Shown here one piece after another: positions 1 to 46,153 of a stretch of 64,000 bases of DNA. Made by a program: the position numbers and the translations under genes. Where the stretch lies: contig JAXLQI010000003.1 of assembly GCA_046331685.1 (NCBI GenBank), forward strand, positions 102,960-166,959, given 5' to 3'. Positions within the stretch are counted from its first letter, which is position 1, and each line of letters opens with the position of its first letter. The notes beneath the pieces were generated by a model. The model was not told the DNA's origin. It did not search any database and saw nothing but the letters and a program-made list of their open reading frames with translations. Source of the DNA: Candidatus Micrarchaeia archaeon (GTDB lineage Archaea; Micrarchaeota; Micrarchaeia; Anstonellales; Bilamarchaeaceae).

Positions 1-828
1 TTTCCACCTATGGCCCTCCAGAAGAAATACTGCATCGGGAGGGTGATCGTCATGATCGCGAGCGTCTGCACGATGATGAGCGCGAGATAGAGCATGATCA
101 CGACCGCGAGGAACAAGACGTTCACCATCGCGAGGAAGAATCCGAAGCTGAGCAGCTGGGATATCACCCCGAAGACCGCCCCGACGACCAGGCCTACTGC
201 GATCTCCGCTATGAAGAACACCACGCTGGCCGCGAGATTACCGCGCACAAGCGCTATCGAGCTTCTCATCGCCTCGATGCCTCCGGAACCGTTCACAGCG
301 ATCTCGAGCTGGGTGAACTGGAGGAAGAAGCCCGCGGTTATCAGGATCAGGATGGCTGCGATCAGCGTCAGCGGGATCAGAATCACGAGCGTCGTGCCGC
401 CTCCACCAGCTATGAACATCAAAGAGAGTGGGACGAGTAGCATACCGCATATCAAGGCCGCCATCACGAGCCCGTAGACGAGATACGGGACGAACATCCT
501 CTTCCCGTTCTCGATGATCGGGACGCCCTTCGGGGCGGCGTCGACGATATTGAAGCAGGTCAGGTGCAATGCCCCGGCGAATATCAGGAGGGGCATGATG
601 ATTGCAGCGGATACTACGATGCCGGCGATGGTCATGGCGCCGATCCCTCCGGCGAAGCTCACGATCCCGAAGAAGACCACGGCCGCGGCTATGATGCCGC
701 AGGCCAGGTATATGGCGAATGTGAGGGCCATGACCTTGAGGAATCCGGCGATCAGGTGCCTGTGGTTTTTCGCGACGAAGCCGAGAGACCTCTCTATCGA
801 CGAGAAAACCGTTTCAAGACTGCCCATG
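1..828 (-). CDS. Multi-pass integral membrane protein. Partial: the C-terminus runs off the window start.
   Basis: Reverse-strand ATG at 826-828. The translation MGSLETVFSSIERSLGFVAKNHRHLIAGFLKVMALTFAIYLACGII... stays open to position 1 and has multiple long hydrophobic helices. It is missing from the ORF track because no stop lies inside the window. Confidence 0.5.
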
Positions 829-1035
829 ATAGCATAGGCCTGGCATATCTTTAAAAAGCCGATATATCATATTATCCTAGTCAGCGGTCATAGGAAGGGG
901 GTAAAACCTGATCCCTTTTCGAACTCAGAAGTTAAGACCCTTCACGGTGACACGAGTACTGCCCTCCGGGCGGGAAAATTCACTGCTGCTGACACTCATC
1001 TTCATTTTTATATTCCCTCCAGTCTTATTCTTGTC

Positions 1036-2389: not shown

Positions 2390-3256
2390 ATGATGTCCAT
2401 GAAACTCGTCCCGCTGATAATGCTTCTTGTTCTCGCGTTCGGTTGCGCGCAGGCCCCGCCCCAGCCCCAGGCTCCGGCCCAGCCTGCGAAGAATGCCACG
2501 CAGCAGAACCAGATCCCCCCCACGGTTGTGAATACCGATGAGAACGCCACCCCGCCGGCTCCAGAGCCCGCTCCTCCGGTGAAGCCCGAAGCCCCGGCCA
2601 TCCCATCGAAGGAGATCTCCTACTACTCCGGAGGCTGGGTGATATATGGCACACTTTATCCGTCGCAGAGCAAGACCCCGACGAGGACGATCATCCTGGC
2701 GCCCATGCTCGGCGCGGACCGGACCTCTTATCCATCCGGATTCATAAAGAAGCTCCATGACCAGATGCCTAACGCGATCGTCCTAGCAATCGATATGCGC
2801 GGGAACGGCAAGAGCACGAACCTCGGCTCATACCGTGATTTCGATACCGCGACCTACAAGGACATGCGGGCGGATATAATCGGCGCCGACAAATATCTCG
2901 GCGCGAACTATCCGACGGTGAAAGCATATTATGTGGTGGGGGCGAGCATGGGCTCGACAGCAGCGCTCCTCGCTGGAGCCCAGTTCCACAAGATCGAGAA
3001 GGTGGCAATGCTCTCGCCGGGCATGGATTATCAGGGCGTCGAGATCGCCAAGTCGTTGCCTGATTACAGCCAGCCTCTGTTCGTCGCGGCGACGTCGGGC
3101 GACGCCGAATCGGTCACCGCCGCTTCGCAGATCGCTTCGATGGGCCAGCCCGGGCAGGTGACGAAGGAGATATACAAAGGGAGCTCTGCGCACGGCACGG
3201 AGATGTTCGACGGGACCGCTCTGGAGGCCGACCTCCTCTCGTTCCTCGAGAACTAG
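2390..3256 (+). CDS. Secreted (lipoprotein-type signal) alpha/beta hydrolase with a Pro/Gln-rich linker
   Basis: Signal peptide plus LAFGC lipobox. [10 protein letters not shown] linker follows. GxSxG nucleophile elbow VVGASMGST. Confidence 0.6.
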
Positions 3257-4669: not shown

Positions 4670-6559
4670 TCACTTCTTCTCGTCCACTTTCTCATAAGAG
4701 CCTTCGACGACATCTTCCCCCGGACCGCCTTTCTTCTTGCCCTTCTTCACATGCTCGTACCCGGGATCCCCGCCCTCCCCCGGACCTCCTTCCCCCGTCC
4801 CGGGCCCTCCCTGCTGCTGGCCGTACATCGCTCCGCCGATCTCCTGGAGGGCTTTCTTCAGGCTTTCGGTCTCGCTCCTTATCTTCGCCACGTCCTCGCC
4901 GGTCATCGCATCCTCGAGTCTCTTCTGTGCGGAGCTTACCTTGTCGAAGATCTCCTTTGAGATCTTGTCCTTGTACTCCTCGATGGTCTTCTTGGAGATA
5001 TATATCATGCCCTCGGCCTCGTTCTTCGCCGTGGCGAGTTCGAAAGCCTTCTTGTCGGCGTCGGAGAACTTGTCGGCCTCAGCCATCTTGGCCTTGATCT
5101 CGCTATCCTGCATCTTTAGCGGCGCAGTCACACGCATGCTCTGCTCCTTCCCCGTCGCCTTGTCCTTTGCGCTCACATGCAGGATGCCGTTCGCGTCTAT
5201 GTCGAACGTCACTTCGACCTGTGGCATCCCCCTAGGAGCCGGGGGTATCCCCATCAGGGTGAACTTTCCCAGCGATACGTTGTCTCTCGCCATCGGCCTC
5301 TCCCCCTGGAGGATGTGGATGTCGACGGCCGTCTGCATGTCGCTCGCTGTCGAGAAGACCTGGCTCTTCTTTGTCGGTATCGTGGTGTTCCGTTCTATGA
5401 GCGCAGTCCTGACCCCGCCGAGCGTCTCGAGGCCTAGCGTCAGCGGCGTCACGTCCAGGAGCAGTATGTCCTTGACCTCTCCGGAGAGGACCCCCCCCTG
5501 GACGGCGGCCCCCATGGCCACGCATTCCATCGGGTCGATCCCGCGCTCCACTTTCTTCCCTATCGTGTCCTCCACGAATTTCTGGACTATGGGCATCCTT
5601 GTCGGCCCGCCGACCAGTATGATCTTGTCGATGTCGTTGGGGGTGAGCTTCGCGTCCTTGAGCGCCTGCTCGACAGGGGCTCTGCACCTCTCGATGACAG
5701 GCCTGATCAGGTCCTCCAGCTTTGCGCGTGTCAGCTTGTGGACGAAATGCTTGGGCTGGTTCTGGATCGAGGCGAGGAACGGCAGATTGACCTCGCTCTC
5801 CACCGTCGTCGAAAGCTCGATCTTCGCCTTCTCCGCGGCTTCGAGGATCCTCTGCTGGGCCTGCCTGTCCTTGGTCATGTCCACCCCGCTCTCTTTCCTG
5901 AACTGGTCGCTCAGGTACTCCGCGATGATCCTGTCCATGTCGGTCCCGCCGAGCTGGGTGTCGCCGCTTGTGGATTTCACCTCGAAGACCCCGCCTCCGA
6001 AATCCATTATCGTGACATCCAGGGTGCCGCCTCCGAGGTCGAAGACGAGGATCTTCATGTCCTTCCCGGCCTTGTCCATTCCGTATGCGAGGCATGCCGC
6101 CGTGGGCTCGTTCACGAGCCGCACCACCTCGAGGCCGGCTATCGATCCGGCGTCCTTGGTCGCCTGCCTCTGGTTGTCGTTGAAATATGCCGGGACGGTT
6201 ATCACCGCCTTGTCGACGGTCTCGCCGAGGAACTCCTCGGCGTCCTTCTTTATCTTCTGGAGTATGAACGCTGAGAGCTCCTGGGGCCGGTATTCTTTCC
6301 CGAAGATCGTGTATCTGTAGTCGGTCCCCATCTTCCTCTTGAAGGCAGAGACCGTCCCCTCCGGATTCGCCACCGCCTGCCTCCTCGCAGGTTCGCCGAT
6401 GATCCTCTGGCCGTCGCGGGTGAGGGCCACATAGCTCGGGAATGCCTTCCCGTATTGCGTTATGCCCTCCGCGCTCGGTATTATCTTCGGCCTGCCGCCT
6501 TCAAGGAAGGCTGCGGCGCTGTTGCTGGTCCCAAGATCGATTCCTATGATTTTTCCCAT
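4670..6559 (-). CDS. dnaK: Hsp70 chaperone DnaK
   Basis: Typical Hsp70 sequence throughout, including [13 protein letters not shown] and DLGGGTLDV. 629 aa. Confidence 0.95.
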
Positions 6560-12009: not shown

Positions 12010-12966
12010 TTGTCCATGATAACGGCAAGCCGGACCAGGAGTTTGCACGACCGTGCCCAGGGTACGATCATCGGAGCTGCGATAGGAGACGCCCTCGGCA
12101 TGCCGACCGAAGGGATCTCGAAAAGGACGCTGGAAGGAAGCTACGGTGGGAAGGTCAGCAGCTTCCAGCGGGCCCTCGGCGGTCACCCATGCAGCCATCT
12201 CCGAGCCGGCCAGTACACCGATGACACGCAGCAGCTCATCATCCTCGCGGAATCGCTGGCCGAACGGGGCGGGTTCGATCTGGATGATTTCGGACGCCGT
12301 CTTGCGTTATGGGGCAGGCGCTGCAGGCACGAGCCGGGTTACGACAGGTACGCCGGAACCTCCAGTCTGGACGCAGCGGACAGGCTCACGGCAGGCATCT
12401 CCCCGCTCAAAAGCAGCGGGGCTGGCGTGACATCCTGCGGCTCTGTGATGCGCGTGGCCCCGGTAGGCATCTTTTTCAAGGATTTCGGCGAAGCTTTGAG
12501 GGAAGCGCGGTTCTCCAGCGTCCCCACCCACGATTCCGATGTATGCAAGGATGCCGCCGGAGCCGTGGCCGGCATAATCAACCTGATAGCGAGGCAGGAT
12601 CTCCATCCGTTCAACGCAGCCCGCAAGGCTCTTGATATGATAACCGAACCGATCATACGGGAGAAGATGAAGCTTGCCATGGATATGGCCGGGGCATCTC
12701 CCGAGGATGCGGCAACGGCTATCGGGACCGGATGCAGCGCTTCGTCGACCGCCTCCTTCGCGATCTACTGCGTCCTCAGTTCCCCGGATGATTTCGAGAA
12801 AACGGTCATAACAGCGGCCAACTCTGTCCCTGGCGACACCGATTCGATAGCGTGCATCGCAGGGGCGATCTCCGGCGCATACAACGGCCTCTCTTCAATA
12901 CCGCCGAGATTCCTTTCAGTGGAGAACTTCGATTACCTGCGTTCCCTCTCTTCGAGGCTTGTCTGA
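12010..12966 (+). CDS. ADP-ribosylglycohydrolase family protein (DraG/ARH-like)
   Basis: GAAIGDALGMPTEG signature and overall ARH-like sequence. 318 aa. Confidence 0.8.
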   Translation: MSMITASRTRSLHDRAQGTIIGAAIGDALGMPTEGISKRTLEGSYGGKVSSFQRALGGHPCSHLRAGQYTDDTQQLIILAESLAERGGFDLDDFGRRLALWGRRCRHEPGYDRYAGTSSLDAADRLTAGISPLKSSGAGVTSCGSVMRVAPVGIFFKDFGEALREARFSSVPTHDSDVCKDAAGAVAGIINLIARQDLHPFNAARKALDMITEPIIREKMKLAMDMAGASPEDAATAIGTGCSASSTASFAIYCVLSSPDDFEKTVITAANSVPGDTDSIACIAGAISGAYNGLSSIPPRFLSVENFDYLRSLSSRLV

Positions 12967-12968
12967 AC

Positions 12969-13658
12969 TCAGCGCAATTCGTACTCGTAGCTCACTGCCC
13001 TCATGCTCTGCCCTTCTGACGGGGTGAAAGACACCCTGAACCTCAGGGGCCTCTCGGGCCGTGCGGTGATATCGCATCCGTCGGTGCCGATCCTCTCGCA
13101 ACCGGGCATCGCGACGAATCCGCCGCCCTCGGCGTTGAGATATTCAAGGCTGAGACGGGCTCCCTGGAGCTCGTGGGATGCCACGGCGCATTTCCCTTCC
13201 CCTTCGCACGGTGGGCTGTCTATCACGTATGCCCTGGCCGTGATCCTATCCAAACCCTCGTGGCTCTGGTCGAGCGCGCATTCTATGGCGATATCGCCAT
13301 TTTGCCATTGGGTCAGGCTGCGCAGGGGAGTGATCCTCGGATCCGGGCTTCCGGTCCTCCCTTGGTCCGAGTCGCCTGAGGTCATGACGACCCCGTTCGC
13401 CGCGCTCTGGCAGTCCTCGATCTGTTCGATGGTGAGCATCATGCTGTCGCAGTCCACAGACGGGCTGCCCGGGCGGATCTCGGCCGTGTTTCCAGCGCAG
13501 CCGGTGATTATCGATGCCGCGAGGGCTTCTGAGAGAATCCTTCCGATCGCGCGCGGCCGCGCCCCATTAATGCCGGTCCGTTGCTGTCCTTCTTTCTTCA
13601 AAAGTGCCATAGTGAGCCTCCTTGAGGGTATGTTGCTGTTTCGTATTTTAAATACCAC
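12969..13658 (-). CDS. Secreted lipoprotein, hypothetical. The true start is probably the internal Met at about 13610.
   Basis: MALLKK...ASIITGC gives a signal peptide plus lipobox. It shares the post-lipobox module DCDSMMLTIEQIEDC with the FGE-like lipoprotein at 10148. Confidence 0.5.
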   Translation of the reverse strand: MVFKIRNSNIPSRRLTMALLKKEGQQRTGINGARPRAIGRILSEALAASIITGCAGNTAEIRPGSPSVDCDSMMLTIEQIEDCQSAANGVVMTSGDSDQGRTGSPDPRITPLRSLTQWQNGDIAIECALDQSHEGLDRITARAYVIDSPPCEGEGKCAVASHELQGARLSLEYLNAEGGGFVAMPGCERIGTDGCDITARPERPLRFRVSFTPSEGQSMRAVSYEYELR

Positions 13659-13707
13659 TGTTTAACACAGAATAAGCCCCGCATTGAGCCTTGAAAATTG
13701 TCCATGG

Positions 13708-13926
13708 CGAGCCTTAAGGGCGTTTTTTCCTTGCTAGTTTTTGCCAAAATTTCGCGACAAAGCGAAATTTTTAGCATGGCAAGAACGTCGAAACGTTCTT
13801 GACTGCCATTGTTGCCATGCAACAATAGCAAAAACAAAACGCCTTGTTTTTGAACTTTCGTTCAAAACAGTCGTTTTGGTTCTTAAGGTGGTTCACCGCG
13901 AGCCTCAAGGGCGAGCGCAGTGAACC
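13708..13926. repeat. AT-rich palindrome-dense element flanked by imperfect 17-bp direct repeats, adjacent to the tRNA-Asp 3' end
   Basis: Six consecutive perfect short hairpins at 13747-13878. Direct repeats gcgagccttaagggcg and gcgagcctcaagggcg. The tRNA 3'-end string caaaacgccttg is duplicated at 13834-13845. Confidence 0.5.
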
Positions 13927-13930
13927 AAAA

Positions 13931-14038
13931 CGCCTTGACCGGGATTCGAACCCGGGTCGCGAGAGTGACAGTCTCGTATGCTAGACCACAGAGCGCCCTG
14001 AGCGGTTTCAAACGCTGGGGGCTCTACACTATCAAGGC
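13931..14038 (-). tRNA. tRNA-Asp(GUC) with a putative 35-nt non-canonical intron in the D-loop
   Basis: The 7/7 acceptor stem GCCUUGA/UCAAGGC pairs across 108 nt. T-arm CCGGG-UUCGAAU-CCCGG. Anticodon arm CGAGA-CUGUCAC-UCUCG. Removing 13989-14023 gives a 73-nt cloverleaf with D-loop AGUGGUCUA. Confidence 0.7.
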
Positions 14039-14067: not shown

Positions 14068-14077
14068 TTTTAAAAAC
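14068..14077 (-). promoter_or_regulatory. TATA box for tRNA-Asp
   Basis: gtttttaaaac lies about 30 nt upstream of the tRNA 5' end on the minus strand. Confidence 0.5.
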
Positions 14078-15411: not shown

Positions 15412-16962
15412 ATGAAGATAAGACGGGCTCTCATCAGCGTCCACGACAAGGAAGGCATCGTCGACTTCGCGAGAGTGCTCTCCAGCCTCGGGATCGAGCT
15501 GATCTCGAGCGGAGGCACAGCGAAGATCCTCCGCGAGAACGGCCTGCAGGTGACCGAAGTGTCGGCAGTCACAGGCTCTCCCGAGATGATGGACGGCCGG
15601 GTAAAGACGATGCATCCGAAGATCCACGGGGCTATCCTCGCCGACCGGAACAGCAAGAAGCACCTCGCCGAGGCCAGGAAGAGCGGCATCGAGCTGATCG
15701 ACCTCGTGGTCGTGAACCTCTATCCTTTCGAGGAGACGATCCGGAAGGGCTCTTCGAAGAGGGAGATAATCGAGAATATAGATATCGGCGGCCCCGCCCT
15801 CCTGCGCGCCGCGGCGAAGAATTACCAGCATGTGGCTGCCGTCTGCAACCCGTCTCGCTACAAGGATGTGGCCGCTGAGATGAAAAGCTCCGGGGGTTGG
15901 CTCTCGGAGAAGACCCTCGAGCGCCTCGCGTTGGACACATGGGAGCATGTGGCGCACTACGATGTCATCATCGAGCAGCACTTCCGGAAGGCTTTCGGGT
16001 ACCAGGATGAGTTCCCGGAGTTCCTCAACCTCACATTCCACAAGAAGCAGGATCTCCGTTACGGGGAGAACCCGCACCAGCGCGCCTCGGTGTATCACGA
16101 CGACCTCTACCGGAACCCGTCATTCCTCGATGCCAAGCAGCTCCAGGGGAAGGAGATGTCGTACAACAACTTCCTCGACTGCAACGCAGCTTTCAAGCTT
16201 ATCCGGGAATTCGACGAGCCCACCGGAGTGATCGTGAAGCACAACAATCCCTGCGGGGTAGCATCGTCCGACCGGATCCTGGATGCCTTCAGGATGGCCA
16301 AATCAGTCGATCCGGAGGCGTCTTTCGGAGGTGTCGTGGCCCTGAACCGGAAGGTCGATGAGGCCCTCGCGCGGGAGATCACGAGCAAGTTCGTCGATAT
16401 CGTGATGGCGCCGGGCTTCGATGAGCGGGCCCTCGAGGTCCTCCGCGCCAAGAAGAACATGCGGGTGATGGAGCACCCCGGTGTGACGGCGAAGAGGGTC
16501 CCCTACCGCAAATACCGCTCGATCCTGGGGGGTTTGCTCGCCCAGGATGCCAATGTCAAGCTGATCGATCAGCTACGCATCGTGACGAGGCGCAAGCCGA
16601 CCGAAAGCGAGATGAAAGCGCTCATGTATGCCTGGAAGATCGTCAAATACGTCAAGTCGAACGCCATCGTCTACGCACGCGAGAACCGGGCCGTCGGGAT
16701 AGGGGCCGGCCAGATGAAGCGCGTGGATGCGACGAAGCTGGCCGCGATGATAGCCAAAGACTACGGCGGGGACGTCCGCGGCTGCGCGATGGCAAGCGAC
16801 GCGTTCTTCCCGTTCCGTGACGGAATAGACTATGCCGCGAAGCTGGGCATAAGCGCGATAATCCAGCCCGGCGGATCGATCCGCGACGATGAGGTCATCA
16901 AGGCTGCGGATGAGCACGGCATCGCGATGGTCTTCACCGGGATACGGCACTTCAGGCACTAG
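15412..16962 (+). CDS. purH: Bifunctional AICAR transformylase / IMP cyclohydrolase PurH
   Basis: N-terminal MGS-like domain ([10 protein letters not shown]), an AICARFT domain and a conserved C-terminus. 516 aa. Confidence 0.95.
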
Positions 16963-30347: not shown

Positions 30348-33300
30348 CTACGGTTTCCTTAAAGCCCGCTCTTTCAGCAGGAGCATGTAAACGAACGAAT
30401 TGAAAACCGATAATGGATCATGCGTCTCGACATTATAGTAATCCTTCGCCCCTTTGATGAACGACCTCTGGTCGCCGCAGGTTTCGATCATATCCACATC
30501 ATCCCCGGCGACCCCCACGTGGGGCAGGTACTCGTAACCCGGCGCCACCCAGTAATAAGAGATATCGACATTCACCCGCTTGCCGTATTTCACCTCCAGC
30601 AGGGCCTTTGTGAATGGCAGGAGGGTCTTGTAGCCGGTATCGACGAGGACTCCGTCGAAGACCTTCTTCTTCGACGGGTCGGTTATCCCGCTCTTGGCAA
30701 GATAACTGAGCAGTTTTTCGCAATTCGCTTTGAACTGCGGATCCATATGCATCGCGCTCTTGATCTGCAGCCGGAGGCTGTTCATGAAATGCCCGAACAG
30801 GTCGGTCTGCATGCTTGCCACCGTAGCCGTCTTAGGGTCAGCAGAAGCCTTGAATACCGAATAGGCATACTGGTTGGCCTTGAAGACCATATCCGAGATG
30901 TTATGCGCATCGTTCTCGAAGAAATCCTTGCCGAGGGAGGTCCTGGTTATCAGCGCGCCCTTGGGCATCTTATGCCCTTTCCTGCTCGCTATCGTCCCGT
31001 CGACCACCATGAACGCGGCTCCATCCCTCCAGAGGTATACCCTGGACTTGTCCGGATAATGGCTGACGATCGCATCTGTGGACAGGAAGACCCTCTCCAC
31101 CACATGCTCGAGGGGACTCACTCCGAATCCTTCAGTGATGGGTATCTGCTTGTCTATGGCTACGCTCTCGACGCCGAATATCCCGGCGTTCTTGTTGATT
31201 ATGAGCTGGAGCTGGGCCTTCGAGAGCTTCTTGGCCGTGTGTTTCGTCGCGAAATCCATCAGGGCTTTTTCGAGTTCGGCCATCTTCTTGACATCCTTGA
31301 ATGAATGCCCGATCGTGAGCAGGTCCTCGGGTACCGACGATTCCAGATCCGCCCTGAAGCTGTCGATGCTCTTGAACCTGCTTTGGGCCTTGAACTCGCT
31401 CTCGACTAATCTGCTATATGCTACATCCGGCGATTCTTTTTCAACGGGTTTGGGGGCAGGGAGCTTCGGTTTCATCCCTGATCTGCTCAGGCGGAGATGC
31501 TCTGTAGCGATCTCGATGGTCGTCCAATCCGGATGCTGGTCCTTTATTATCAGCATCTCGAAATAATCCGAGCTCACGACCATGAAACCCGTGATCGCTG
31601 CTTTCCCCAGCTTGTCGAATTCCTCGGCGAGCCCCTTCACCCGGGCCGCGTCTTCGATTGCATGCCGCTTTATCTCTAGCTCCCGCTCATAATAGATGAC
31701 CCTCGACTGGCGCAGGGTCTCTTCCTTGACCGCGTTCCCGCCGTGATCGAGCTTTTCGGCGATTTTCTTCACCGCATCGCGATATTCGGGATAGTCCTTG
31801 GTCACTTCCGCCAGGGTGAACCCTGCCTTCAGATTCTCGACGAAATGCTCGAGGGTTCCGGCGATCTTCCCGACCCTATCCTTGGTCATACCGCCGCCGA
31901 CAAGATCCTCAATGCCCTCAAGCATCCTGACCCTCGGGCTTTTCCTCGCAGGTATGCCCACCCTCTCGGATTTGTCGCCGACCGTGATGTCGAATTCGAA
32001 CGCATCGATTTTCTCAGACATACTAGTCATGATCTTCGATTTCCCGGCGAATACCATGCCAGGTGGCAGGACTGTATCAGGCGCCGCAAGCAACTCATCA
32101 GCGTACGCTGAAGGTTCTGTGATCAGTTCTGATTCTTTGACCGCCATAGGGGTCTTGGAGATCTCTTTCGGACCGGCGCTCTTCTCCTTCGGCGGCACGA
32201 CCGGCGTGATCAGATCCTCTTCCGTGACAACCATGGGCGTCTCTGAGATCTCCTTTGGTTTGAAGCCTTTTCCGGTCGCAGCTGGTTCTGGCCCTTCCCC
32301 CCCGGGTGGCGGGGGCAGTGCGGCCGGCTCGGCAATCTTGGGCGCCGGAAGTTTCCCGGTCTTGGCCGCTCCTCCCTTCCCTGCGACAGTCCCTTCGGCC
32401 GGCCCGTATCTCAATTCTTCCCAACGCTCGTTGATGAAGTCGTTCAGGCCGCTGACCGGCCTTTTCTTGCCTAGGTACCAGATGATGTCCAGGTGCAGCT
32501 GCCTGACAAGGTCCCGTGTCCCGGGAATGACCTTCCCAGGCAGGCGTATGACGACGAAATGCTCCTCTTTTTGGGTTTTGGTCGCGTCCTCATTCGCTTC
32601 CTTGGGGCTGACGTCCCCGGTGTGCGTTTTCAGGTACTCGTGAATGGGGATAACCCGATCATAAGCTACCACGACCCCCTCGTTTTTCTGTATCCCTGCC
32701 GGAATCTTGACGTGGATGTCATACTCTCCGATCTCCTTCATGCTTTTCGCTCCAAAAGGCATATCATAGCTCATGACGCCATCAGTGCCTACATGGATTC
32801 CACGGGGGTCGTTTGTGGTGAGCCTGTCGAAATATCTGATGCCCTCTGCCGTCTCGGCATACCCCTGGAAATCGAAAGTCTTTGCAAGGCCTTTTTCCGA
32901 CTTTATCGCGAAAAGCTGATCGTATTCTTCGCCCGAAAGGAGCGGCAGGCCGTTATGCATGCGGCCTTTCCAGCCTCCTGCTTTTACCAATGCTTCTGCC
33001 GGCGTCTCCTCGGGAGCCATCTTCGGGGGTGCCGCAGGCTCGGTTTTTTCGAATCCCGTTGGAATGGGTGCTTTCTTTGCCAGCTCTTCCACGGACGCTG
33101 ATTCAGGCACCGGAACAGGAGGCGCTTTCTTGGCCGGAGCGGTCTTCTCCACCACCTCTTCGGGGGGAGGAGCGGGTTTCTTCGCCAGCGGCGTCTTGGC
33201 CTCTTCAGCTGGAACGGGCGGCTCTACAGCGAGCGCCTTTTTCTTCCCTAATGCAGGGGTGGCCTCAGGCTGCTTCTTCGGCGGTTTGGCCGTGAACTCC

Positions 33301-36300
33301 TCGGCGCCTGCGGCAAGGGGCAGTCCGGCCGGAGTCGCCACCTTCTTCGCCATAACCGGCGTCTTATCCTCTTCGGTGCCGATCGGTGTTTTCGCCGTTT
33401 CTTTTATCCTGCGCTCGACGGCGCCCTTCAGCCCCTCGACGTATTCAGCCTGGTCACGGCGTGCTGCATCCATCAGCGCCAGTATCTCGTCGCCGTAGAG
33501 ATGGACCCGTCCATCGACCCTCTCGACGGTCCGGACCCTGCCCCCGTGGATGAACAGGGAGCCCACTTTCGGGGCATTCGGGCTTGTCGTGTCGAAGCCG
33601 AGCCCGAAGGGCTTCCCTTCGTGGGCTTCGACGATCGGTTTCACAGGGCTCTTCAGGTCGGACGGGGCGAGCTTGTCGGCTTTGAGGTCCAGCCCGGCTT
33701 TCTCTCCTAGCAGCTCTGCCATCATGGCTTTCGCGGCCGGGACCTCACCTTGGAACAGGTCCTTCCCGTTCCCCATCTTGATGGACGCCGCCTTGTCGAG
33801 CGCAGAGGCCATGTCGATGAGCATGCCGCTCGTTGCATCAGCGAAATCCCTGTTGAAGTCGGTGAAATCCGGTTTCCCTTCCTTGGATCCGATCCTGGCC
33901 CCTATGCCGTCCATGTCTATCGGCTGGAACGTCAGCTCTACCTCGCCGCTTGCGCGCCGCACCAGCATCACTGTGGTGTTCCGGTCGAAACGGTCCATCA
34001 GCAGGATCCTTCTCGAAAGCTCGTGATACGTGTTCCAGGCCTTGAATATCTTCTCCCTGCCCTCTTTCGTCTGGGCTAGCTTGTAGAACATCGCCGCTGC
34101 GGCGTTGTCGGCGTCAGGCTTCTTCAGGACCTCATCCCTGAACATGGCAACCCCCAGGACTGTCACGTTCTCCGTCTTCCCGTCCGATGGCAGGCTCGCC
34201 ATGACCTTCTTGCCTTCGTAGGCTTTCACCAGGGATCCGTCCGGCAAGGTTATCGTGGTTTCGGAGTGCCCTGTTTTCGGGGATGCCAGGTCATGTATGT
34301 CCAGCGATATCCCGTAGTCCTGCATCAGCGGTTTTCCGTCGACCATCAACCCTGTGTCGTATGCATACCCGTGCAGGGTCTCGGGCGGGACGAGGCCTTT
34401 GGAAGCTGCCAGTTCCTCCCCGAATTTGACCGGGAGCATATCCTCGGGCTTCACGAATATGCTCCGCCCGTCCGACATCTTCACCTTGAAGATGCCCCTC
34501 AACCCGCTCAGGGGCTCGACGCTGCTTATCTTCTTGCCGCCGAATCCCGGGATCGCCGCGATCCTCGCAGGCAATCCGCCCCTCACGATCAGATCCAGGA
34601 ATACCTTGACCTTGGAGTCATATTCGAATGTCTCGCTCTCGAGCCGTATCCTGTGGGGCCCGACCTTGTCCGCCAATTCGGCTTTTTTCGGGTCCCCGTC
34701 CGCCATCCCCGCGACCTGGCCCTCCGTGTGCTCGACCCATCTCTTCAGCTCGATGATGCCGTCCCGGTCTTTCCTGAAAGACGAGATGTCGATCCCGAAA
34801 GCGTCAAGGACATTCAGCCTTCCTTCCGATCCGCCCTCACCGTAGATCTCTTTCATCAGGGCCGGGTCCTGGCCGTTCTTCTTTGTATAGGCGGCGATCG
34901 CTCCGAATTCCTCCCCGGGAGGCAGGGCGGCCTTAGCCTCATCGATTTTTTTCAGGTGCCCCAGCTCTTTCGCGCCCCTGAACCATTCCATCGCCATGCG
35001 AAGCTTCATCATGGGATTGTTTTCCAGGATCATGTGGTCCAGCTTCCAGGCCAGGTACGGATCGGTCGCCCTTATGCTGTCGATGATGAACTTTCCTGAG
35101 GGTTTTGTGAATATGCTACCGCTGAATTCGGCTAGGCCCTCGGCCGTCCCCCCTGCTAGGAGGTGCGAATACGCTTTTCCTATGGACGTGCTGACGCTCT
35201 CTCCAGGCGCAGCTTTGAGCAGGAAATCCGCGATGACGGCCCGGGTGACCGGGTCGGCAGATTCGAAGACGTTTTTCACCAGGCCGTTCTTCCTGATGGC
35301 TTCGACCGAGGACGATCTCGGATCGCCGGTCTTGGCCCATTCTGCGAGCCTGGCCTCGGCTTCGCTCATCGATATGTCGCCGCGCATCCTGAGCGAGCCC
35401 TCGGCCACCTTGAGGAGGTCTGTGAGCTTCGGGCTTCCGCTTTCTATCTCGAGCCTCGCCGCCGCGATCCCGTCGCTGTCCACCCCCTCTATGTTCTTCT
35501 TGTATTCCGAGATCTTCTCCATGGCCGGCGGGGGTTCCTTCGGTTTCGGGACAGCCTTGGACGAGATGCCCTCCGCCTCTGTCCAGGATGCAGGGTCAGT
35601 CCTGCCCTCGAGCTTCTTCGCGGCTTTCCGCAGGGCCACTATGTCGGACTCCACGGCATCCGCTTCGGCATGCTTGCCTTCAGCGCGGAGTATCGACGCT
35701 TGGTCGGTGAGCTTGTTCGATCTCTCGAATAGCATCTCCGAAGGCGTCTTAGGTTTGGCAGACGGGACGGGTTCGGGGTATTTCGCGGCAGGGCTAGGCT
35801 CCTTCATCGGCGCCGGTTCGATCGGTTTCGCGGTGCCAGGTTCCACACCGCCTGGTTTGATCCCGCTTTTGAGCGTCGGTTCTATTGCCACAGGTGCTGC
35901 GACCGGGGCGGTTTCCATCCCAGGTATGGTCGCGGCCATCTCCATCCTGATGCTGTCCCAGGTCTTCGCTGCGAACCCTCCCGGGTCCTCCGAGTTTGTC
36001 TTGTAGAGCTCTTTGAACACCGTGGCAGCATCGGCGGTCAGGATCGTCCTGCCGTCCGTGTCCATCGGCACGTTCTTCTTCCCGTTGATGAAATTCTTCC
36101 CTTCGATCCTGAACATCTCATCGACATCGTGGAGCTCTGCCGCGGCCTCGGCCGGGGCTTCCTCTCCCTTCAGGAACGCCTCCCTCCTTTTAGCGAGGGC
36201 TGCCTTCTGCCCCATGGTGAGCTTTGCGTTGAGGCCTATGCCTATCGGGGTCCCGGCATTGGAAGTGAGGGCCTTCTCCACCCCGTCAACGAATCCAGGT

Positions 36301-39300
36301 GATTTTCCTATCTCCTCATGCCAGGCTTTCGCGCCTTCCTTGATGCTCGAAAAGGATTCTGTGAAAAGCGTCTTATACGTCTTACCGGACGGCCCAAGGT
36401 CGGTCAGCTGCATCTGGAGCAGCACATCCATCGTGCCCCTCAATTCGGTCCCGTACGATTCGTGGAGTTCCCCGAAATCCAGCTTCCCCCCGCTTTCTTT
36501 GGCCAGGAACGCCGCGCCGGAATCCGTGTCTATCCTGCCGAACCTGAGGACCATCGCCCCCTTCTCATCGGATACCACCAGGTGCCCGAGTTTCTCCAGG
36601 TGGGCGGCATCCTCTTTGGAGACCCTTCTGGTCATCGCCCATATGTTCCCGTGGTGGCCGTCTGAGAAGCCGACGCTCATGAGGCCGGTCTGGGTGTATC
36701 CGTACTCCTTCATGACCAGTTTCCAGAACAGCTCGGGATTCTCGGCCCTCATCTTCTTCAGGGCAGGATTCGCTTCGACGAACTTGGAGAACTGCTCGAT
36801 CGCCATGGCCGACTCGGTCTTCTCGTGGATGATCTTCCCGCCGGCCTTGGCGTCGCCCTCATGGTATCCCATGTGCTGCATGATCCCGAATCTGGCCCTG
36901 CGCCCTCGGTCGAACAAAGACAGCTCTTTGCCGCCGTGGCCGGTTATCACTTCCGGGGCCGCGATCCCCGCATGTTTTTCCGCAAGCGTCGAGCCCAGCT
37001 TTTCTGCCGAGAGATCCTGCGCCTTCGCTATGAACGCGACTTTCTCCTTCCCCGGCGTCTCGACTGTGATCTCGAAGGCTCCCTGGGCGGCGAATATGAA
37101 CCTGACTTTCTTGACCTTGCTTCCTGCCGGGATCTTCTGGTTCGCGAAAGTTATCTCGCCTTTTCCTATCATGGAGGCGAGATCGCTGGTCAGCAGCCCG
37201 ATGGCTCGCGTCGTCGCGCTTCCTGCCTCCAGCTCTATCCCGGCGCCATGAAGCGCGTCGCTGATTTTGTTTGTAAGCTCCCAGACGTCCTCATTCTCCA
37301 GCGCTGCCTTTTCGATTTTGGCCTTGAGCTCCGGAGCCTTTGACGGTTCAGGAGCTAGCTTGGACAATGCTTCGGAGTTCGCGATGGCACTGAGACGTAG
37401 ACCGATATCATATTTCCCTTTCTTCTCAAGAGCGTCAAGGGCCTTTGCCAGGTTCTCAGGCTTCCCGATCCCTTTCTTCAGGAGGGCTCCGGCGAGGTAA
37501 TCCTCATCTGCCGGTTCCCGTCCCTCGCTCTCGGCTCGTCCTTTCGCGAACTCGGATGCCGCGATATCCACCGGATTCTTCGAAGCTTTGAGTTTGAGGC
37601 TTATCGCCTCTTTTGTCATCTCCCCGATTAATTCGAATGCGGCTTTCTCCAATGGCGCTCCCTGTTTCGCCGCTTCCTCTTTGATGGCCGCTGTGAACTG
37701 TTCATCAAGTTCCGTCGCAGGCGGTTTGTTCCCTTTCGCCATCTCTGCATACGCCTTGGCGGCAGCCTTCTGGCCTTCCACTGCCTTAGCGGCGGTTTCG
37801 GGGCTTACACCTTCGCCCACAAGCTTTTCGATCGCATTCTTCCCGACCTCGTCGAGCGCTTTCTCTCCTGTCGATAAGACCGGTTTCGCTTCGATAGTCT
37901 GTTTCACCGGCTCTATCTTCGGCCCGCCTGACTTCACATCCCTTGCCGCTTCCATCCCGAGCTCGTAGGAAAGATCAGCAGGCGAAAGTTCGGAAGCCTT
38001 GATGACTTTGAAGAATTCCGCCTTGCCTGAGAATTCGGGCGGGACCTTCCCGCTCTTCGAATACTCATTGTAGGCATCGGTGAGCGATTTCGTCCTTGCT
38101 TCGGTTTCGGAAGGTGCGATTTTTTCCACCGCTTCAGGCTTTGGCGCTTCCGCAACTGCTGCCTCGGGTTTGGTCACCCCACCGGCTTTCTTCTTCGCGA
38201 GCGCTTCTTTGAGCTTCGACAGCGCCTCCCCCTTCACGAATGTCTTCGCAGGGGATTTCGCCTCGCTGAAAGCCGCCTCCGGGGACTTCCCCTTCGAACG
38301 CGCTTCGGTGTATCTGATGACGAAGTCAGGTGATGGGGCGGTCGCCTCCTTGAAAGCCTCGGCCGGCCCCTTTCCTTCGTTGCGGGCTGACGAATAAAGG
38401 AGGTGAGGCATCTCGCCTGCGGTCATCATCTTGCTCAGGTGGCCTGCCTCCAGGTCGAGCATCAGCTTCTTGCTCTCGGGAGGGAGACCCTCTGCCGCTT
38501 TGCTCATCTCCGAGATCCCAGCCCTGACCTCGATGGGGTTCTTGCCGGACATTACCTTGGCGTAGGATTCACCGGCGCCGCCCATGCTCTTGCGGAACCC
38601 TGCCAGTTCCTTTGCAGCCGCGTGCTCCTCCACGGACATGAACTCGCTCCGGAATCCGAACAGGATCTGCGTGAACTGCGAAGCGCGGGAGCTGTATTTC
38701 GGCACCCCTCCCTCATGGACCGAGAGGGCCATCCTCTTCGACACGCGCGCCTGCGCCCAAGGAAGAAGGACGGAGGTCGAGGCCCCGCTCATTCCGGTGA
38801 AGACAAGCCCCTGCCAGCCCATCTCGCCTTTCTTGTAAGCATCGTAGATCTTGGGCGCCTGGAATACCAGGAATTCGCCGGCCCCTCCGTAGAACATCGA
38901 TTTCTCAAGTCCCCACGTTGCGCCTTTGTAAGCGTAATACCCAGCTTTGGCTAACCCGCCCGCGGGGGCTTCCGCCGCGGCAAGGAAAGTCAGCCCCTTC
39001 AGCGCTGCTATCCGGTGCCCAATCGGCACGACCGCCCCGACAGCGCTCAGGCCCGCCCTGATATATAATTCGGTGCTCCATTTCCCTGATCTCTCGGCCT
39101 CCTCATAGGCTTCGGCCACGCCCTTGACGCCGGTGACGACGAAATACGCCCCTCCGGTCGCAGCTCCGAGGATCATATCGCCTGCGAACGTCCCTGCAGC
39201 CTTCCCGAAAGCGTAGCGGGCGCCGATGTCGCCCATTTCGCTCTTCAGTCCCTTGGTCTTCGCGTCAGAATCGGATATCTCTCCCTTGTCGGTGAAAGAG

Positions 39301-42300
39301 ACCATCCCGCTGGACTTGAGCGTCGCATCCGATCCGCTGATGTCGCCAGCGATCGCGAGGTCTCCGGCTTTCTTGGACAGAATCATCCTCCCGAGGACGA
39401 CGGCCACGAACTCCTTCTCGGTCTGGACGCCGGTCCCTGCCACCGATGGGGTCTTGGTCCCGAAGCCGATAGATATGTCGTATCCTTCCACGGTCGGAAC
39501 AAGGACATTATCAAGCAGCATATCGAAGTTCTGGGCCGCCTTCATCAGCCTCTCCCTCTGGTCCGGGGAGAGCCTCTCCAGCGATTCGAATCTCAGGCCG
39601 TCGACCGTCTCCTTGGCGTCCAGGCCCACCCTCCAGAAGAAGATATGGCCCGCATCTTTCCCCGCCTTCTCTATGTCTTCCTTGTTGCCCTCCTTGGCAT
39701 CTCCGAACATGTAGGATGAAGTGAGCAGCATCTCGGACCTGCTTACCGACATCACTTCCTTGCCGAAGTTGATTTTCCTCGGGACGCGCCTTCCATGCTC
39801 GTCCACAGCTGAATAGACGGATATGTAAGTGCTTTTCTGGGGGCCGGTCTTGAAGTCGCCGGTGGTGTGCTCGTAAACGGTCGCCGTGACCTCTTTGTTG
39901 GTCTTGAGGGCAGTGAGGAATGTCTCGTCGTTGTCCAGGGCGGTCATCGCATCCTCAAGGCAGATCGCGCTCATCTCCCTCGCGGCTGTCGATGTGTCGT
40001 ATTCGAGCTTGAAATACGGGAGCTTCATCCCGGTCCTCTTCTCATACTCCTTCGCGATCTCTGCGAAATCCTCGGCCTTCTCCAGCCTTCCGAACTCAGA
40101 AAGATCGCCTTTGAGCATGAACCGCTTGCCCTTCTCTATGAACGCTTTTGCGAACTCCCTTGCGGCCGTCCTCTCCTTCTCCTTCCCCACCGTTTCACGG
40201 TATTTCTTGTCTGCCGCTTCCAGGACCGGAGGATTCTTCTCTCCTGCGAGGATCGAGTCCACAGCCTTATGGTTGGCGCTTGCGGTTCCCTCCCAATCCT
40301 TCTCGCTCCGCTCGTAGCTGGCGCCGAGCTTGTCGAGCGGGGATTTCAGGGCCTTGTTCCTCTCATCCCTCAACTTCACGGCATCGTCTTTCTCTACGAC
40401 CCCATACGGGGCCTTTTCCAGGAACGCGCCATCCACGCCCGCCTTTTCATCACGGGCCTTCCACTTGTTGAAATCAGATGTGGCGGCTTTGATCCCGTAT
40501 CCCTCGGCCATCTTGGCCTTGAACATGTCAGATTCGAGCGTCCTGAATCCTTTCCTCGCTCCGATCACATCTCCTGCCTCAGCGGCATCGCTGAGGGCCA
40601 TGAGCCTCTTGCCATAGAACGATGTATTGAAGTATGGGAGCCTGCCTTTCTCGACGACGTCCTTGATGGAGCCTTTCTCATACGCTCCGGCCCCGGGCAC
40701 CGGGATGGATTCCAGCATCAGCCTCGAAAGGAGCTTCTCCCTCGCTCCGAGCCCGTCCTTGCCCGGAGGGATCATCGCGAGCTCTTTCTCATATCTGTAC
40801 CTGCTGTTCGGGTCAGGTATCAGTCCGACCAGCACTCCGAGCTCAGGGTTCCCGATCGTCCCACGGTCTCCTCCTGCGAAGAACTTGATCCCGTTGTCGG
40901 CATAGCCCTTCTTTATATCGTACTCGTCCAGGTGCATCTTCGCCCCCTGGAACCTGATATCGAAATTCGTGTGGACCTTCGCCGAATATGTCTCGGCATC
41001 CGCGAACCGCTCGGACCAGTTGAGCGAGATGACGGTGGAATGCTTGGTCTTGTAGCCGTTGAGGTCGAGCCATTTCTCCCCGCGCTCGTCCGTGGTCTTG
41101 ACGCCCTGCGATCCGGTGAGGTCCTCATACAGCTTCTGCAGTTTTGCCGGATCGTCGCCTGCGGCCGCAAGGCGGTCGCCTTTGCCGTGGTATGAGACGA
41201 GGTCGTTGTAGAGCGCTTTCAGCTTCCCCTGGTCTTCGCCCGCTTCTGCGTACCTCTCTGAGAAGACCTCCTTCATGGGCTTCTGCCCTTCCCTGAGGTA
41301 AGTCTCTTTCGGGAAGTTCGCGATCATATCCCTGACCAGGAGCTTTGTAAGGACGCTCTGGACCCTGCCTATGTCCTTCTTGAAGGCCTCCTGCTCGAGC
41401 CATATCGCTCCGTCACGCTGTTTCTTTATCTTCTCCTCACGGGAGACCAGCTCGCTGCCCGCTGCGTTCAAGCCTATGCCCCGCTCGACAAGCTTCTTCT
41501 TCCTCTCGGCGGTCAGCGGCACCGGCTTCGAGTCCGCCCCGATGAGCTTCTCGCCTTTCTCATCGGCATCATGGCCTTCGCCGATCGCGAGGAACGTCTT
41601 CGCGGCAGCGTCGAGCTCGGCCCTCCCGCTCTTCTTGTTTATGGTGTCTATCCTGGTGACGCTCTTGTGGAGCTTGGCGAGAGAATCGGCCGCCGCGTCC
41701 GCGCTCAATCTCTTATCATTTCCGCTCGCTATGAGCGATGTTATTTCTTGGTCTAAGAGTGACTTGTATAAGGCGTTCCGAAGCTCGTCGGCCTCCTTCG
41801 CCTTGCCCTCTTTCCCGAGCGAATCCGCTTTCTTGAGAGCGAGATCGACCTTCTCCTTCATCTCCGGCGGAAGCCCGCTCGAGAGTTCGTCGGTCCTCTT
41901 CCTCACGAACGCCGGCCCGGCGTCATCCGCCGCTTCGTACTCCTCTTCAAGGTCGACCGACATCAGCAACTCGGATGTCCCTTTTTCGCGGAGGGCCGCT
42001 GCCCTGCCGACCGAGCTTGTCATGGACACGAAGTCCGAGCCTTCCGAAGCATATTTCTTCTTCATCGCCTCGCGGTCCTTCTCGGCCCCTAGTATCGCGA
42101 TCCCTTTCGAGTCGCCGGCAGCTTTTTCCTGGAGGAACGAATCCCGGGTCAATTCGTGCCCCAGCTTGACCGCTGATTTAATCCCGGCTGCTTCGACAGC
42201 GTCTTCCAGCTCTGCCTTCGTCGGTTCCCTTCCGAGCTCTTTCTTCAGGCTCGCCTCGGTCTCCGCCCTCTTCTCCTTCCCGAGGGCTTCAGTCACCGAT

Positions 42301-45812: not shown

Positions 45813-45817
45813 ATGCT

Positions 45818-46153
45818 TCACTCGGGCCGGATGCCCTCCGCTATCCTGACCAGATCCCGGAGCCTTTGGATGCGGGTCTCGAAAGTATCCGTGAACTTTG
45901 GCTTGCTGGCCTCCCACCCCTTCAGGGCGTCCAGGGCTTTCTGGTACCTCTCGAAATTCTTCGCGAGCTCCGGGGGCTTCCCGCCGGATGCTTTCCATGC
46001 CGCGAGCGCCTCCTCGAGCTGGGCGATCATCTTCTTCACCCGTTCGCGGGTCTCGGCTTCGACCTGGCCGATCGTGGATTCGTTTATCTTGGGGTTGAGG
46101 GCTTCGGCGACCAGCGAATTCTCGTATCTCTCCAATTCCTCTGGACTTGCCAT
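45818..46153 (-). CDS. Hypothetical 111-aa helical protein, first gene of the giant-gene operon
   Basis: MASPEELERYENSL... with charged, helical composition. Its stop lies 5 nt before the giant-gene ATG. Confidence 0.5.
   Translation of the reverse strand: MASPEELERYENSLVAEALNPKINESTIGQVEAETRERVKKMIAQLEEALAAWKASGGKPPELAKNFERYQKALDALKGWEASKPKFTDTFETRIQRLRDLVRIAEGIRPE

Follow-up and report, generated by a model that had tools for sequence, protein, structure and literature searches.

A Micrarchaeota tRNA-Asp(GUC) gene with a probable protein-spliced intron in the D-loop, between positions 15 and 16

Results

An interrupted tRNA-Asp(GUC) gene

A 64,000-nucleotide stretch of archaeal DNA (contig JAXLQI010000003.1, positions 102,960 to 166,959, from GenBank assembly GCA_046331685.1), referred to here as the window, carries an interrupted tRNA-Asp(GUC) gene at positions 13931 to 14038 on the minus strand. 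We are confident that the gene is functional and that its 35-nt insert is a protein-spliced archaeal intron situated between tRNA positions 15 and 16. Sequence comparison demonstrates the anatomy of the RNA, places the junction exactly, and shows that the fold is conserved and that the exons are under purifying selection, whereas cleavage, ligation and the identities of the enzymes are inferred from what is established for other archaea, including members of this phylum.

The complete pre-tRNA extends over 108 nt from G1 at 14038 to the discriminator G73 at 13931. Its 5′ exon (14024 to 14038, tRNA positions 1–15) comprises the acceptor strand GCCUUGA, U8 and A9, the D-stem strand GUGU, and A14 and G15. 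The intron, AGCCCCCAGCGUUUGAAACCGCUCAGGGCGCUCUG, occupies 13989 to 14023, as defined by comparison with orthologues. It is followed by the 3′ exon (13931 to 13988, positions 16–73), which reads UGGUCUA, GCAU, a single A, the canonical anticodon arm CGAGA-CUGUCAC-UCUCG, the variable loop CGAC, the canonical T-arm CCGGG-UUCGAAU-CCCGG, the acceptor strand UCAAGGC and G73. The anticodon GUC lies at 13967 to 13969, an assignment based on the sequence and on the ARAGORN call for the spliced form. The acceptor strands form seven of seven possible base pairs. CCA is not encoded in the gene, and a U-run directly follows the discriminator. An earlier note on this DNA had recognized the perfect acceptor stem and the two canonical arms and had left the strand unstated; all of these elements are present on the minus strand. 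Its coordinate for the start of the acceptor stem was one base off, since 13931 is the discriminator and the plus-strand GCCTTGA lies at 13932 to 13938. The 108 nt that the note placed between the acceptor halves proved to be the correct length for the wrong object, because it is that of the entire gene.

Deletion of 14023 to 13989 in silico generated the D-stem GUGU/GCAU and the D-loop AGUGGUCUA, and ARAGORN identified the product as a perfect 73-nt tRNA-Asp(gtc), in agreement with the earlier proposal that excision of this segment yields a normal cloverleaf. In the spliced sequence, G10 pairs with U25 and U13 with G22, the discriminator is G73 and the variable loop is 4 nt long. Of these features, G73, the G10-U25 pair and the length of the variable loop are traits of yeast and archaeal tRNA-Asp, in keeping with tRNA-Asp(GUC). 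Upstream of the gene, the TATA-box-like sequence TTTTTAAAA (14068 to 14076, minus strand) spans −38 to −30 relative to tRNA position 1 and may serve as the promoter; an A/T box (TTTTTAAAA, GTTTATAAT or TTTTATAAA) is found equally far upstream in all intron-bearing orthologues. The oligo-U stretch (TTTT, 13927 to 13930, minus strand) immediately 3′ of the discriminator is a likely archaeal terminator. The orthologous tRNA-Asp gene at locus L002 is trailed by an identical TTTTGG.

Intron-less orthologues define the junction

When each species was represented by a single genome, a pattern search based on the 3′ exon returned 63 loci, and a scan of metagenomes for a split D-arm added 9 more. About 50 Micrarchaeota tRNA-Asp genes were found to be uninterrupted, with the form GCCUUGG UA GUGU AG(U/C) GGUC(U/C)A GCAU. 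Their junction, GUGUAG|UGGUC, matches the window sequence with the 35 nt deleted, and the 15-nt 5′ exon equals the start of the intron-less Micrarchaeota genes, reading GCCTTGGTAGTGTAG|T. The intron-less orthologues thus define exactly the 15/16 junction, D-stem and D-loop that had been suggested from the window alone. Compared with these genes, the spliced tRNA of the window differs almost only in stems, with pairing kept in each.

Inserts of 16, 21, 26, 32, 35, 36, 37, 44 or 45 nt interrupt the same site in 14 distinct genes (the window gene and loci L002/L013, L009, L005, L069, L072, L073, L070, L046, L062/L076, L071, L032, L068 and L074/L075). All of the intron-bearing genes have the anticodon stem CGAGA paired with UCUCG (in L071, with UCUUG); the stem of most intron-less genes is CGAGC/GCUUG. 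Because the intron-bearing exons form a coherent group, the simplest reading is that the intron was probably gained once, in one subclade, and then inherited vertically with drift in its length.

The exons of the window gene, of L002/L013 (Bilamarchaeum sp.) and of L009 show 100% identity, such that the spliced forms are the same base for base, whereas the introns match the window intron at only 28 of 36 positions (L002/L013) and 24 of 35 positions (L009), or about 70–78%. Among the intron-bearing genes, the acceptor stem has also undergone compensatory changes (U5-A68/G6-C67/A7-U66 and so on), with the combinations UGA/UCA, CGG/CCG, CAG/CUG and UGG/CCA. Identical exons, diverging introns and compensatory acceptor changes indicate that these are selected tRNAs rather than decaying copies. 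In each of the six species genomes that carry the intron, a single tRNA-Asp pattern match was obtained, and it was always the interrupted gene; two matches were found in four intron-less genomes (JAJZKU01, JBMFWW01, JBMFUB01 and DAHWXM01). From this pattern of matches, the cell probably has no tRNA-Asp gene other than the interrupted one. We therefore argue, from the sequence comparisons, that the gene is expressed and under selection and that the insert must be removed.

Several other tRNA-Asp genes in these scans were unusual. A metagenomic gene of Micrarchaeota type at L071 (885 to 1020, plus strand) contains two introns, the 21-nt D-loop intron at 15/16 and a T-loop insert of about 46 nt (UUCGAAU|GCUUUG...CGACGAU|CCCGG) whose junction is ambiguous from 58/59 to 60/61; ARAGORN finds nothing at this locus. 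An Aenigmatarchaeota gene (L022, about 4720 to 4830, plus strand) has an insert of about 34 nt where the 5′ strand of the acceptor stem ends, near 7/8, and a Micrarchaeota gene (L064, about 100 to 230, minus strand) has a tRNA-Asp insert of about 39 nt near 10/11. These inserts indicate that tRNA-Asp of DPANN archaea has been interrupted independently at several positions on its 5′ side. At L051, a second 3′ part of a tRNA-Asp, from the D-loop onward (2904 to 2990, plus strand), lies 1.1 kb past an intact intron-less gene, with no recognizable 5′ acceptor or D-stem sequence upstream of it (...CGGCGGUAGU|GGUCCAGCAU...). This partial copy could be a truncated duplicate, half of a split tRNA or an integration scar. 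The introns of L005 (4894 to 4938), L069 and L072, which are 44–45 nt long, contain GAUGA-like and CUGA elements (...GGAUGACGAGAUGAUUUU...CCUGAGC) that recall C/D box motifs and are probably only part of the hairpin stem. Inspection led us to reject a role resembling that of a C/D box small nucleolar RNA for the 35-nt window intron, which has no box C or D motifs.

The junctions fit a relaxed HBh′ splice motif

The earlier note had named a bulge-helix-bulge (BHB) search at the exon-intron junctions as a check on its proposal. We fixed the geometry of the motif from the tRNA-Tyr intron of the window, namely a 4-bp central helix and 3-nt bulges with the cut after the second bulge base. One HBh′ scheme accommodates 14 of 14 introns at the 15/16 site, so a BHB-compatible structure does exist, with covariation over 11 non-redundant sequences. 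In the window (all elements on the minus strand), the 5′ strand of helix H consists of exon nucleotides G10 U11 G12 U13 (14026 to 14029), which pair with intron GCUC (13991 to 13994), a segment that precedes the last two intron nucleotides and mimics the 3′ strand of the D-stem. The 5′ splice-site bulge, A14 G15|A, ends with the first intron nucleotide (14023 to 14025), and the predicted cut is at 14024/14023. Helix h′ is formed entirely within the intron by GCCC (14019 to 14022) and GGGC (13995 to 13998), the latter adjoining the H strand on its 5′ side. At the 3′ splice site, U G|U16 (13988 to 13990), cleavage is predicted at 13989/13988. The 3-nt bulge AG|A (AG|U once) separates H from h′ in 14 of 14 introns, and in all 14 genes H is directly followed by two intron nucleotides and then exon U16.

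Covariation was assessed in an alignment of trimmed junction segments, in which the 14 introns gave 11 non-redundant sequences. Helix H pairs in 40 of 44 cells, with the intron variants GCUC, GCAC, GCAU, ACAU and GCGC; in the window its pairs are G-C, U·U, G-C and U·G, three of which count as paired. All four pairs of h′ covary (GCCC/GGGC, GUCC/GGAC, GCAC/GUGC, GGGU/ACCC, GAAA/UUUU and GCUU/GAGC). Standard pairs occupy 90.9% of the 88 cells, compared with 31–69% when the partners were slid by 1–3 columns. Both sides of a pair have changed in 14 cells, and the observed covariation score was reached by 0 of 500 shuffles. Moreover, folding of the relative L046 without constraints gave a minimum-free-energy structure that consists exactly of H, the 3-nt bulge and h′.

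The window alone is compatible with a junction at either 14/15 or 15/16, since both give an identical product (GUGUA+GUGG). Splicing one base earlier, at 14/15, would use a central helix of A9 G10 U11 G12 and C44 G45 C46 U47, which by inspection has no mismatch in the window and in relatives of the GCUC type, and it would leave the product of the window unchanged. However, the introns of the relatives end in A, which resolves the junction to 15/16; at 14/15 these relatives would acquire A15 in place of the G15 found in every intron-less orthologue, and the G15-C48 Levitt pair would be broken. The earlier register also has no h′ helix against the bulge, and with the partners slid by −1 the family pairing falls to only 30.7%. 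We consider splicing at 14/15 very improbable. The registers 16/17 and 17/18 were discarded because inspection revealed mismatches in their central helices.

A number of observations weigh against a spliced intron in a functional gene. The 3′ splice site lacks the closing exon helix of the strict hBHBh′ motif, because A9 and U8 face G18 and G19 (exon GGUCUA) and are unable, on inspection, to pair; the motif consequently belongs to the relaxed HBh′/BHL class. In the L005 group, L009, L002 and the window itself, where the intron strand is GCUC, helix H contains the mismatch U11·U47. The alignment segments were placed by the model itself, which favors it, and the slid controls guard against this in part. 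In addition, a rival continuous 6-bp helix between pre-tRNA nucleotides 13–18 and 45–50 buries both splice sites. For the window precursor, ViennaRNA gave −41.4 kcal/mol when this helix is present; the values were −35.2 kcal/mol for HBh′ and −36.1 kcal/mol when the D-stem is formed, such that the 6-bp-helix fold is about 6 kcal/mol more stable than HBh′ in the window. Pfam scans of 17 translated segments, representing 16 open reading frames (ORFs), identified only housekeeping genes and revealed no EndA or RtcB in the 64-kb window, although their absence from 64 kb of a genome is expected. Finally, an intron-less tRNA-Asp copy may be present outside the 64 kb.

The 6-bp helix was rejected as a structure of the whole family: 74% of its cells pair, there is no covariation and 203 of 500 shuffles equal it. 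It is complete, as UAGAGY/RCUCUR, only in the subclade of the window, where two intron substitutions both weaken H (U·U) and create the 6-bp helix. We treat it as a competing predicted conformer that the enzyme would have to overcome. A more speculative interpretation, which we regard as improbable, is that a conformational switch gates splicing in the subclade whose introns end in GCUCUR. Splicing might also be ordered relative to modification of G15, since the predicted cut lies directly 3′ of this residue, where archaeal tRNAs carry archaeosine. If true, gated splicing would give a non-canonical intron a regulatory or quality-control role rather than that of a passive insertion.

Standard tools truncate or miss the gene

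With the unspliced gene, ARAGORN returned a truncated call of 66 nt (13930 to 13995), and the Rfam tRNA model, run in E-value mode, matched 13931 to 13994 at 26.3 bits, short of the gathering threshold (29 bits); an intron-less orthologue reaches 64.8 bits with the same model. For the intron-bearing genes of relatives, these tools gave inconsistent truncated calls or none. ARAGORN reported no tRNA in the PurH-linked loci L001–L004, though the pattern search found the intron-bearing orthologue in L002. At default thresholds, the probable sole tRNA-Asp gene of the subclade is therefore missed or cut short by ARAGORN and Rfam/Infernal, and as a result annotations of metagenome-assembled genomes and estimates of tRNA complement and completeness would wrongly score tRNA-Asp as missing.

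Alternative explanations

We considered three explanations that dispense with splicing or with the gene as we have drawn it, and even taken together they are improbable. If the locus were a dead tRNA-Asp gene with a functionless 35-nt insertion that is never removed, the failure of standard detectors on the unspliced sequence, the burial of both junctions in a helix when the window precursor adopts its predicted energy minimum, and the possibility of another tRNA-Asp gene in this genome beyond the 64 kb would all be accounted for. A dead gene would not, however, be expected to retain exons that are identical over three species while the introns diverge, compensatory changes in the acceptor stem within the intron-bearing clade, covarying intron pairs in H and h′, or conserved promoter-like and terminator signals, nor would it be the only hit to the tRNA-Asp pattern in the genomes of six related species. 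This explanation is accordingly very unlikely.

We assign a similarly small chance to retention of the insert in the mature RNA as a D-loop expansion hairpin, which would make an unusually long tRNA. The insert does fold by itself, through h′ and the inner stem AGCG/CGCU, and the conformation with the D-stem is energetically near HBh′ (within the values given above). Yet the length of the insert varies from 16 to 45 nt and its loop sequence is not conserved. The conserved pairing of the intron with G10-U13 competes with the D-stem, which suits recognition by an endonuclease and not a retained arm, and the insert would part G15 from G18 and G19. In canonical tRNAs, residues G18 and G19 of the D-loop take part in conserved tertiary contacts of the core, and we know of no precedent for a tRNA with a retained D-loop expansion of this sort. 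The remaining possibility, that the true gene is the 66-nt tRNA-Asp without a D-arm at 13930/13931 to 13995 and that the upstream sequence is unrelated to it, is almost certainly incorrect. Although both the ARAGORN and the Rfam calls cover this interval, the truncated form has a mismatched acceptor stem, no D-arm and a score under the Rfam threshold, and the same tools behave inconsistently on the relatives. Furthermore, a perfect 5′ acceptor strand and the 5′ half of the D-arm are present 35 nt upstream and are kept in all orthologues. Splicing of an intron from between positions 15 and 16 of a functional gene thus remains the interpretation that we favor.

Proposed processing pathway

In the proposed pathway, transcription would run from the TATA-like box to the oligo-U. 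In the precursor, the 5′ strand of the D-stem, G10-U13, would pair with its mimic in the intron instead of with its normal D-stem partner, forming H. A14, G15 and the first intron base would bulge between H and h′, and the 3′ site would lie unpaired two bases past H. A broad-specificity EndA would then cleave on the 3′ side of G15 and on the 5′ side of U16; the epsilon2 type, described in ARMAN-2, is the most likely candidate in this phylum. An RtcB-type ligase would join the exons, allowing the D-stem to re-form, while RNase P would trim the leader and CCA would be added.

The earlier note held that a relaxed-specificity splicing endonuclease is needed. This claim fits both the motif, which has no 3′ exon helix, and the situation in ARMAN-2 (PMC3239211), while the enzyme itself was not located: a crude tblastn search with an M. 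jannaschii EndA query yielded no credible match in the window or in the fetched loci. The strict hBHBh′ motif is the substrate of the alpha4 and alpha′2 EndA enzymes. HBh′, hBH and BHL introns are handled only by the (alpha-beta)2 and epsilon2 enzymes (PMC5829648). ARMAN-2 (Ca. Micrarchaeum acidiphilum) is itself a member of the Micrarchaeota in which 56% of tRNA genes are disrupted (PMC3239211). The epsilon2 EndA of this organism accepts relaxed as well as strict motifs (PMC3239211), and structures of it are given in PMC3488258 and PMC12397907.

Host and genomic surroundings

The PurH gene at 15412 to 16962 (NCBI MFN7991358.1) is 1.4 kb from the tRNA-Asp gene. Its best homologues belong to uncultured archaea, among them Ca. 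Bilamarchaeum dharawalense (77% identity), and the genomes with a near-identical tRNA-Asp 3′ exon are almost all labeled Micrarchaeota or Micrarchaeia. By these sequence affiliations, the host is a member of the Micrarchaeota (DPANN) close to Ca. Bilamarchaeum. The window also contains housekeeping genes for DnaK, DnaJ, CarB, an aspartokinase-type kinase (AA_kinase and ACT domains), HAD and PHP proteins, and a tRNA-Tyr(GUA) gene (22994 to 22870, minus strand) with an intron of about 53 nt at the canonical 37/38 position and the archaeal C1-G72 pair. In this intron, C32-U35 pair with intron GCGG, and the 3′ bulge is AA|A. The tRNA-Tyr gene scores 52 bits with Rfam and is unreported by ARAGORN in default mode. 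Since it carries a canonical intron, the genome must splice tRNAs, implying an EndA. As judged from this gene content, the window is normal chromosomal DNA of a tRNA-splicing DPANN archaeon.

The PurH of L002 is 82% identical to that of the window, and its tRNA-Asp gene occupies the same HAD...PHP-PurH neighborhood, between HAD and ATPase genes. The pattern search found no tRNA-Asp in the fetched stretches of the PurH-linked loci L001, L003 and L004.

Discussion

The intron described here belongs to a known type, the non-canonical archaeal tRNA introns, and is a new instance rather than a new type. This assignment, which the earlier note had anticipated, follows from an archaeal (Micrarchaeota) host, an insertion site outside 37/38 and agreement with the HBh′ fold. 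A close parallel is the D-loop intron of pre-tRNA-Glu from M. kandleri, located at 20b/21 with an HBh′ motif, for which the mature form was seen in RNA-Seq and which is fully removed by the broad-specificity EndA of A. pernix (PMC5829648). Both introns interrupt the D-loop of an archaeal pre-tRNA and share the relaxed HBh′ motif. The window site at 15/16 is on the opposite side of the D-loop, in another tRNA and another phylum, and M. kandleri tRNA-Glu additionally has a canonical 37/38 intron, whereas the window tRNA-Asp has only the D-loop intron. The pre-tRNA-Thr2(UGU) of A. pernix likewise has an intron in the D-loop, for whose removal EndA alone suffices, with no guide RNA or modifications, and which is processed more slowly than a 37/38 intron (PMC3241643). 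Unlike the window motif, that of tRNA-Thr2, a different tRNA in a different lineage, is described as a full canonical BHB, and the EndA that acts on it is of the crenarchaeal (alpha-beta)2 form.

Within the same phylum, ARMAN-2 has introns at many non-canonical positions, often with relaxed motifs, and in vitro its epsilon2 enzyme cuts strict as well as relaxed (hBH/BHL) substrates (PMC3239211, PMC3488258, PMC12397907). The ARMAN-2 examples described in the portions of this literature available to us are at 37/38, 53/54 and 59/60, unlike the window intron at 15/16, and those portions contain no mention that we found of a 15/16 intron in tRNA-Asp. Reviewed non-canonical sites include 3/4, 20/21, 22/23, 25/26, 29/30, 30/31, 45/46, 53/54, 56/57 and 59/60 "etc." (PMC4090602), and a prior description of a 15/16 intron in Micrarchaeota tRNA-Asp could not be confirmed from the literature available. 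The introns of Thermoproteales (20/21, 22/23, 25/26 and others) resemble the window intron in that a BHB-type signal can be transplanted to nearly any tRNA position and in being lineage-specific gains (PMC4090602). They differ in having spread among many tRNAs by apparent transposition, whereas the intron described here is found at one site of one tRNA and is vertically inherited in a Micrarchaeota subclade.

These results document, in a DPANN lineage, a probable single gain of a non-canonical intron, followed by vertical transmission with drift in length. Fourteen natural variants at one site constitute a small covariation set that defines conserved features of HBh′ substrates at this site, in a phylum known for the epsilon2 enzyme. 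The understanding of archaeal tRNA splicing is unchanged by this intron; its scientific interest is modest, and its practical value lies in the annotation of DPANN genomes.

Other features of the window

A 5S rRNA gene (880 to 994, plus strand; Rfam 66.5 bits) is apparently isolated; the window contains neither a 16S nor a 23S rRNA gene. A giant ORF (30348 to 45998, minus strand; 5216 amino acids), scanned as two halves, has no significant Pfam domain, its best match being a sub-threshold methyltransferase-like one at 18.9 bits. Giant surface proteins recur in DPANN genomes.

Relative to L002, the window has two added genes between HAD and the tRNA, one encoding an ADP-ribosylglycohydrolase (12010 to 12966) and the other an ORF at 12969 to 13658. 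The 270 nt downstream of the tRNA gene (13660 to 13930) are A/T-rich, contain many short hairpins and have no blastn match in any fetched relative locus. The 16-mer GCGAGCCTYAAGGGCG occurs twice in this region, at 13707 to 13722 and 13898 to 13913. A 12-nt exact repeat, CAAAACGCCTTG, is present at 13832 to 13846 and 13923 to 13937 (plus strand), with about 0.14 chance matches expected. One copy comprises the 3′ end of the tRNA-Asp gene together with the start of the trailer, and the gene is separated by 91 nt from the second copy, which is downstream of it; the repeat may be the remnant of an attachment-site-like duplication.

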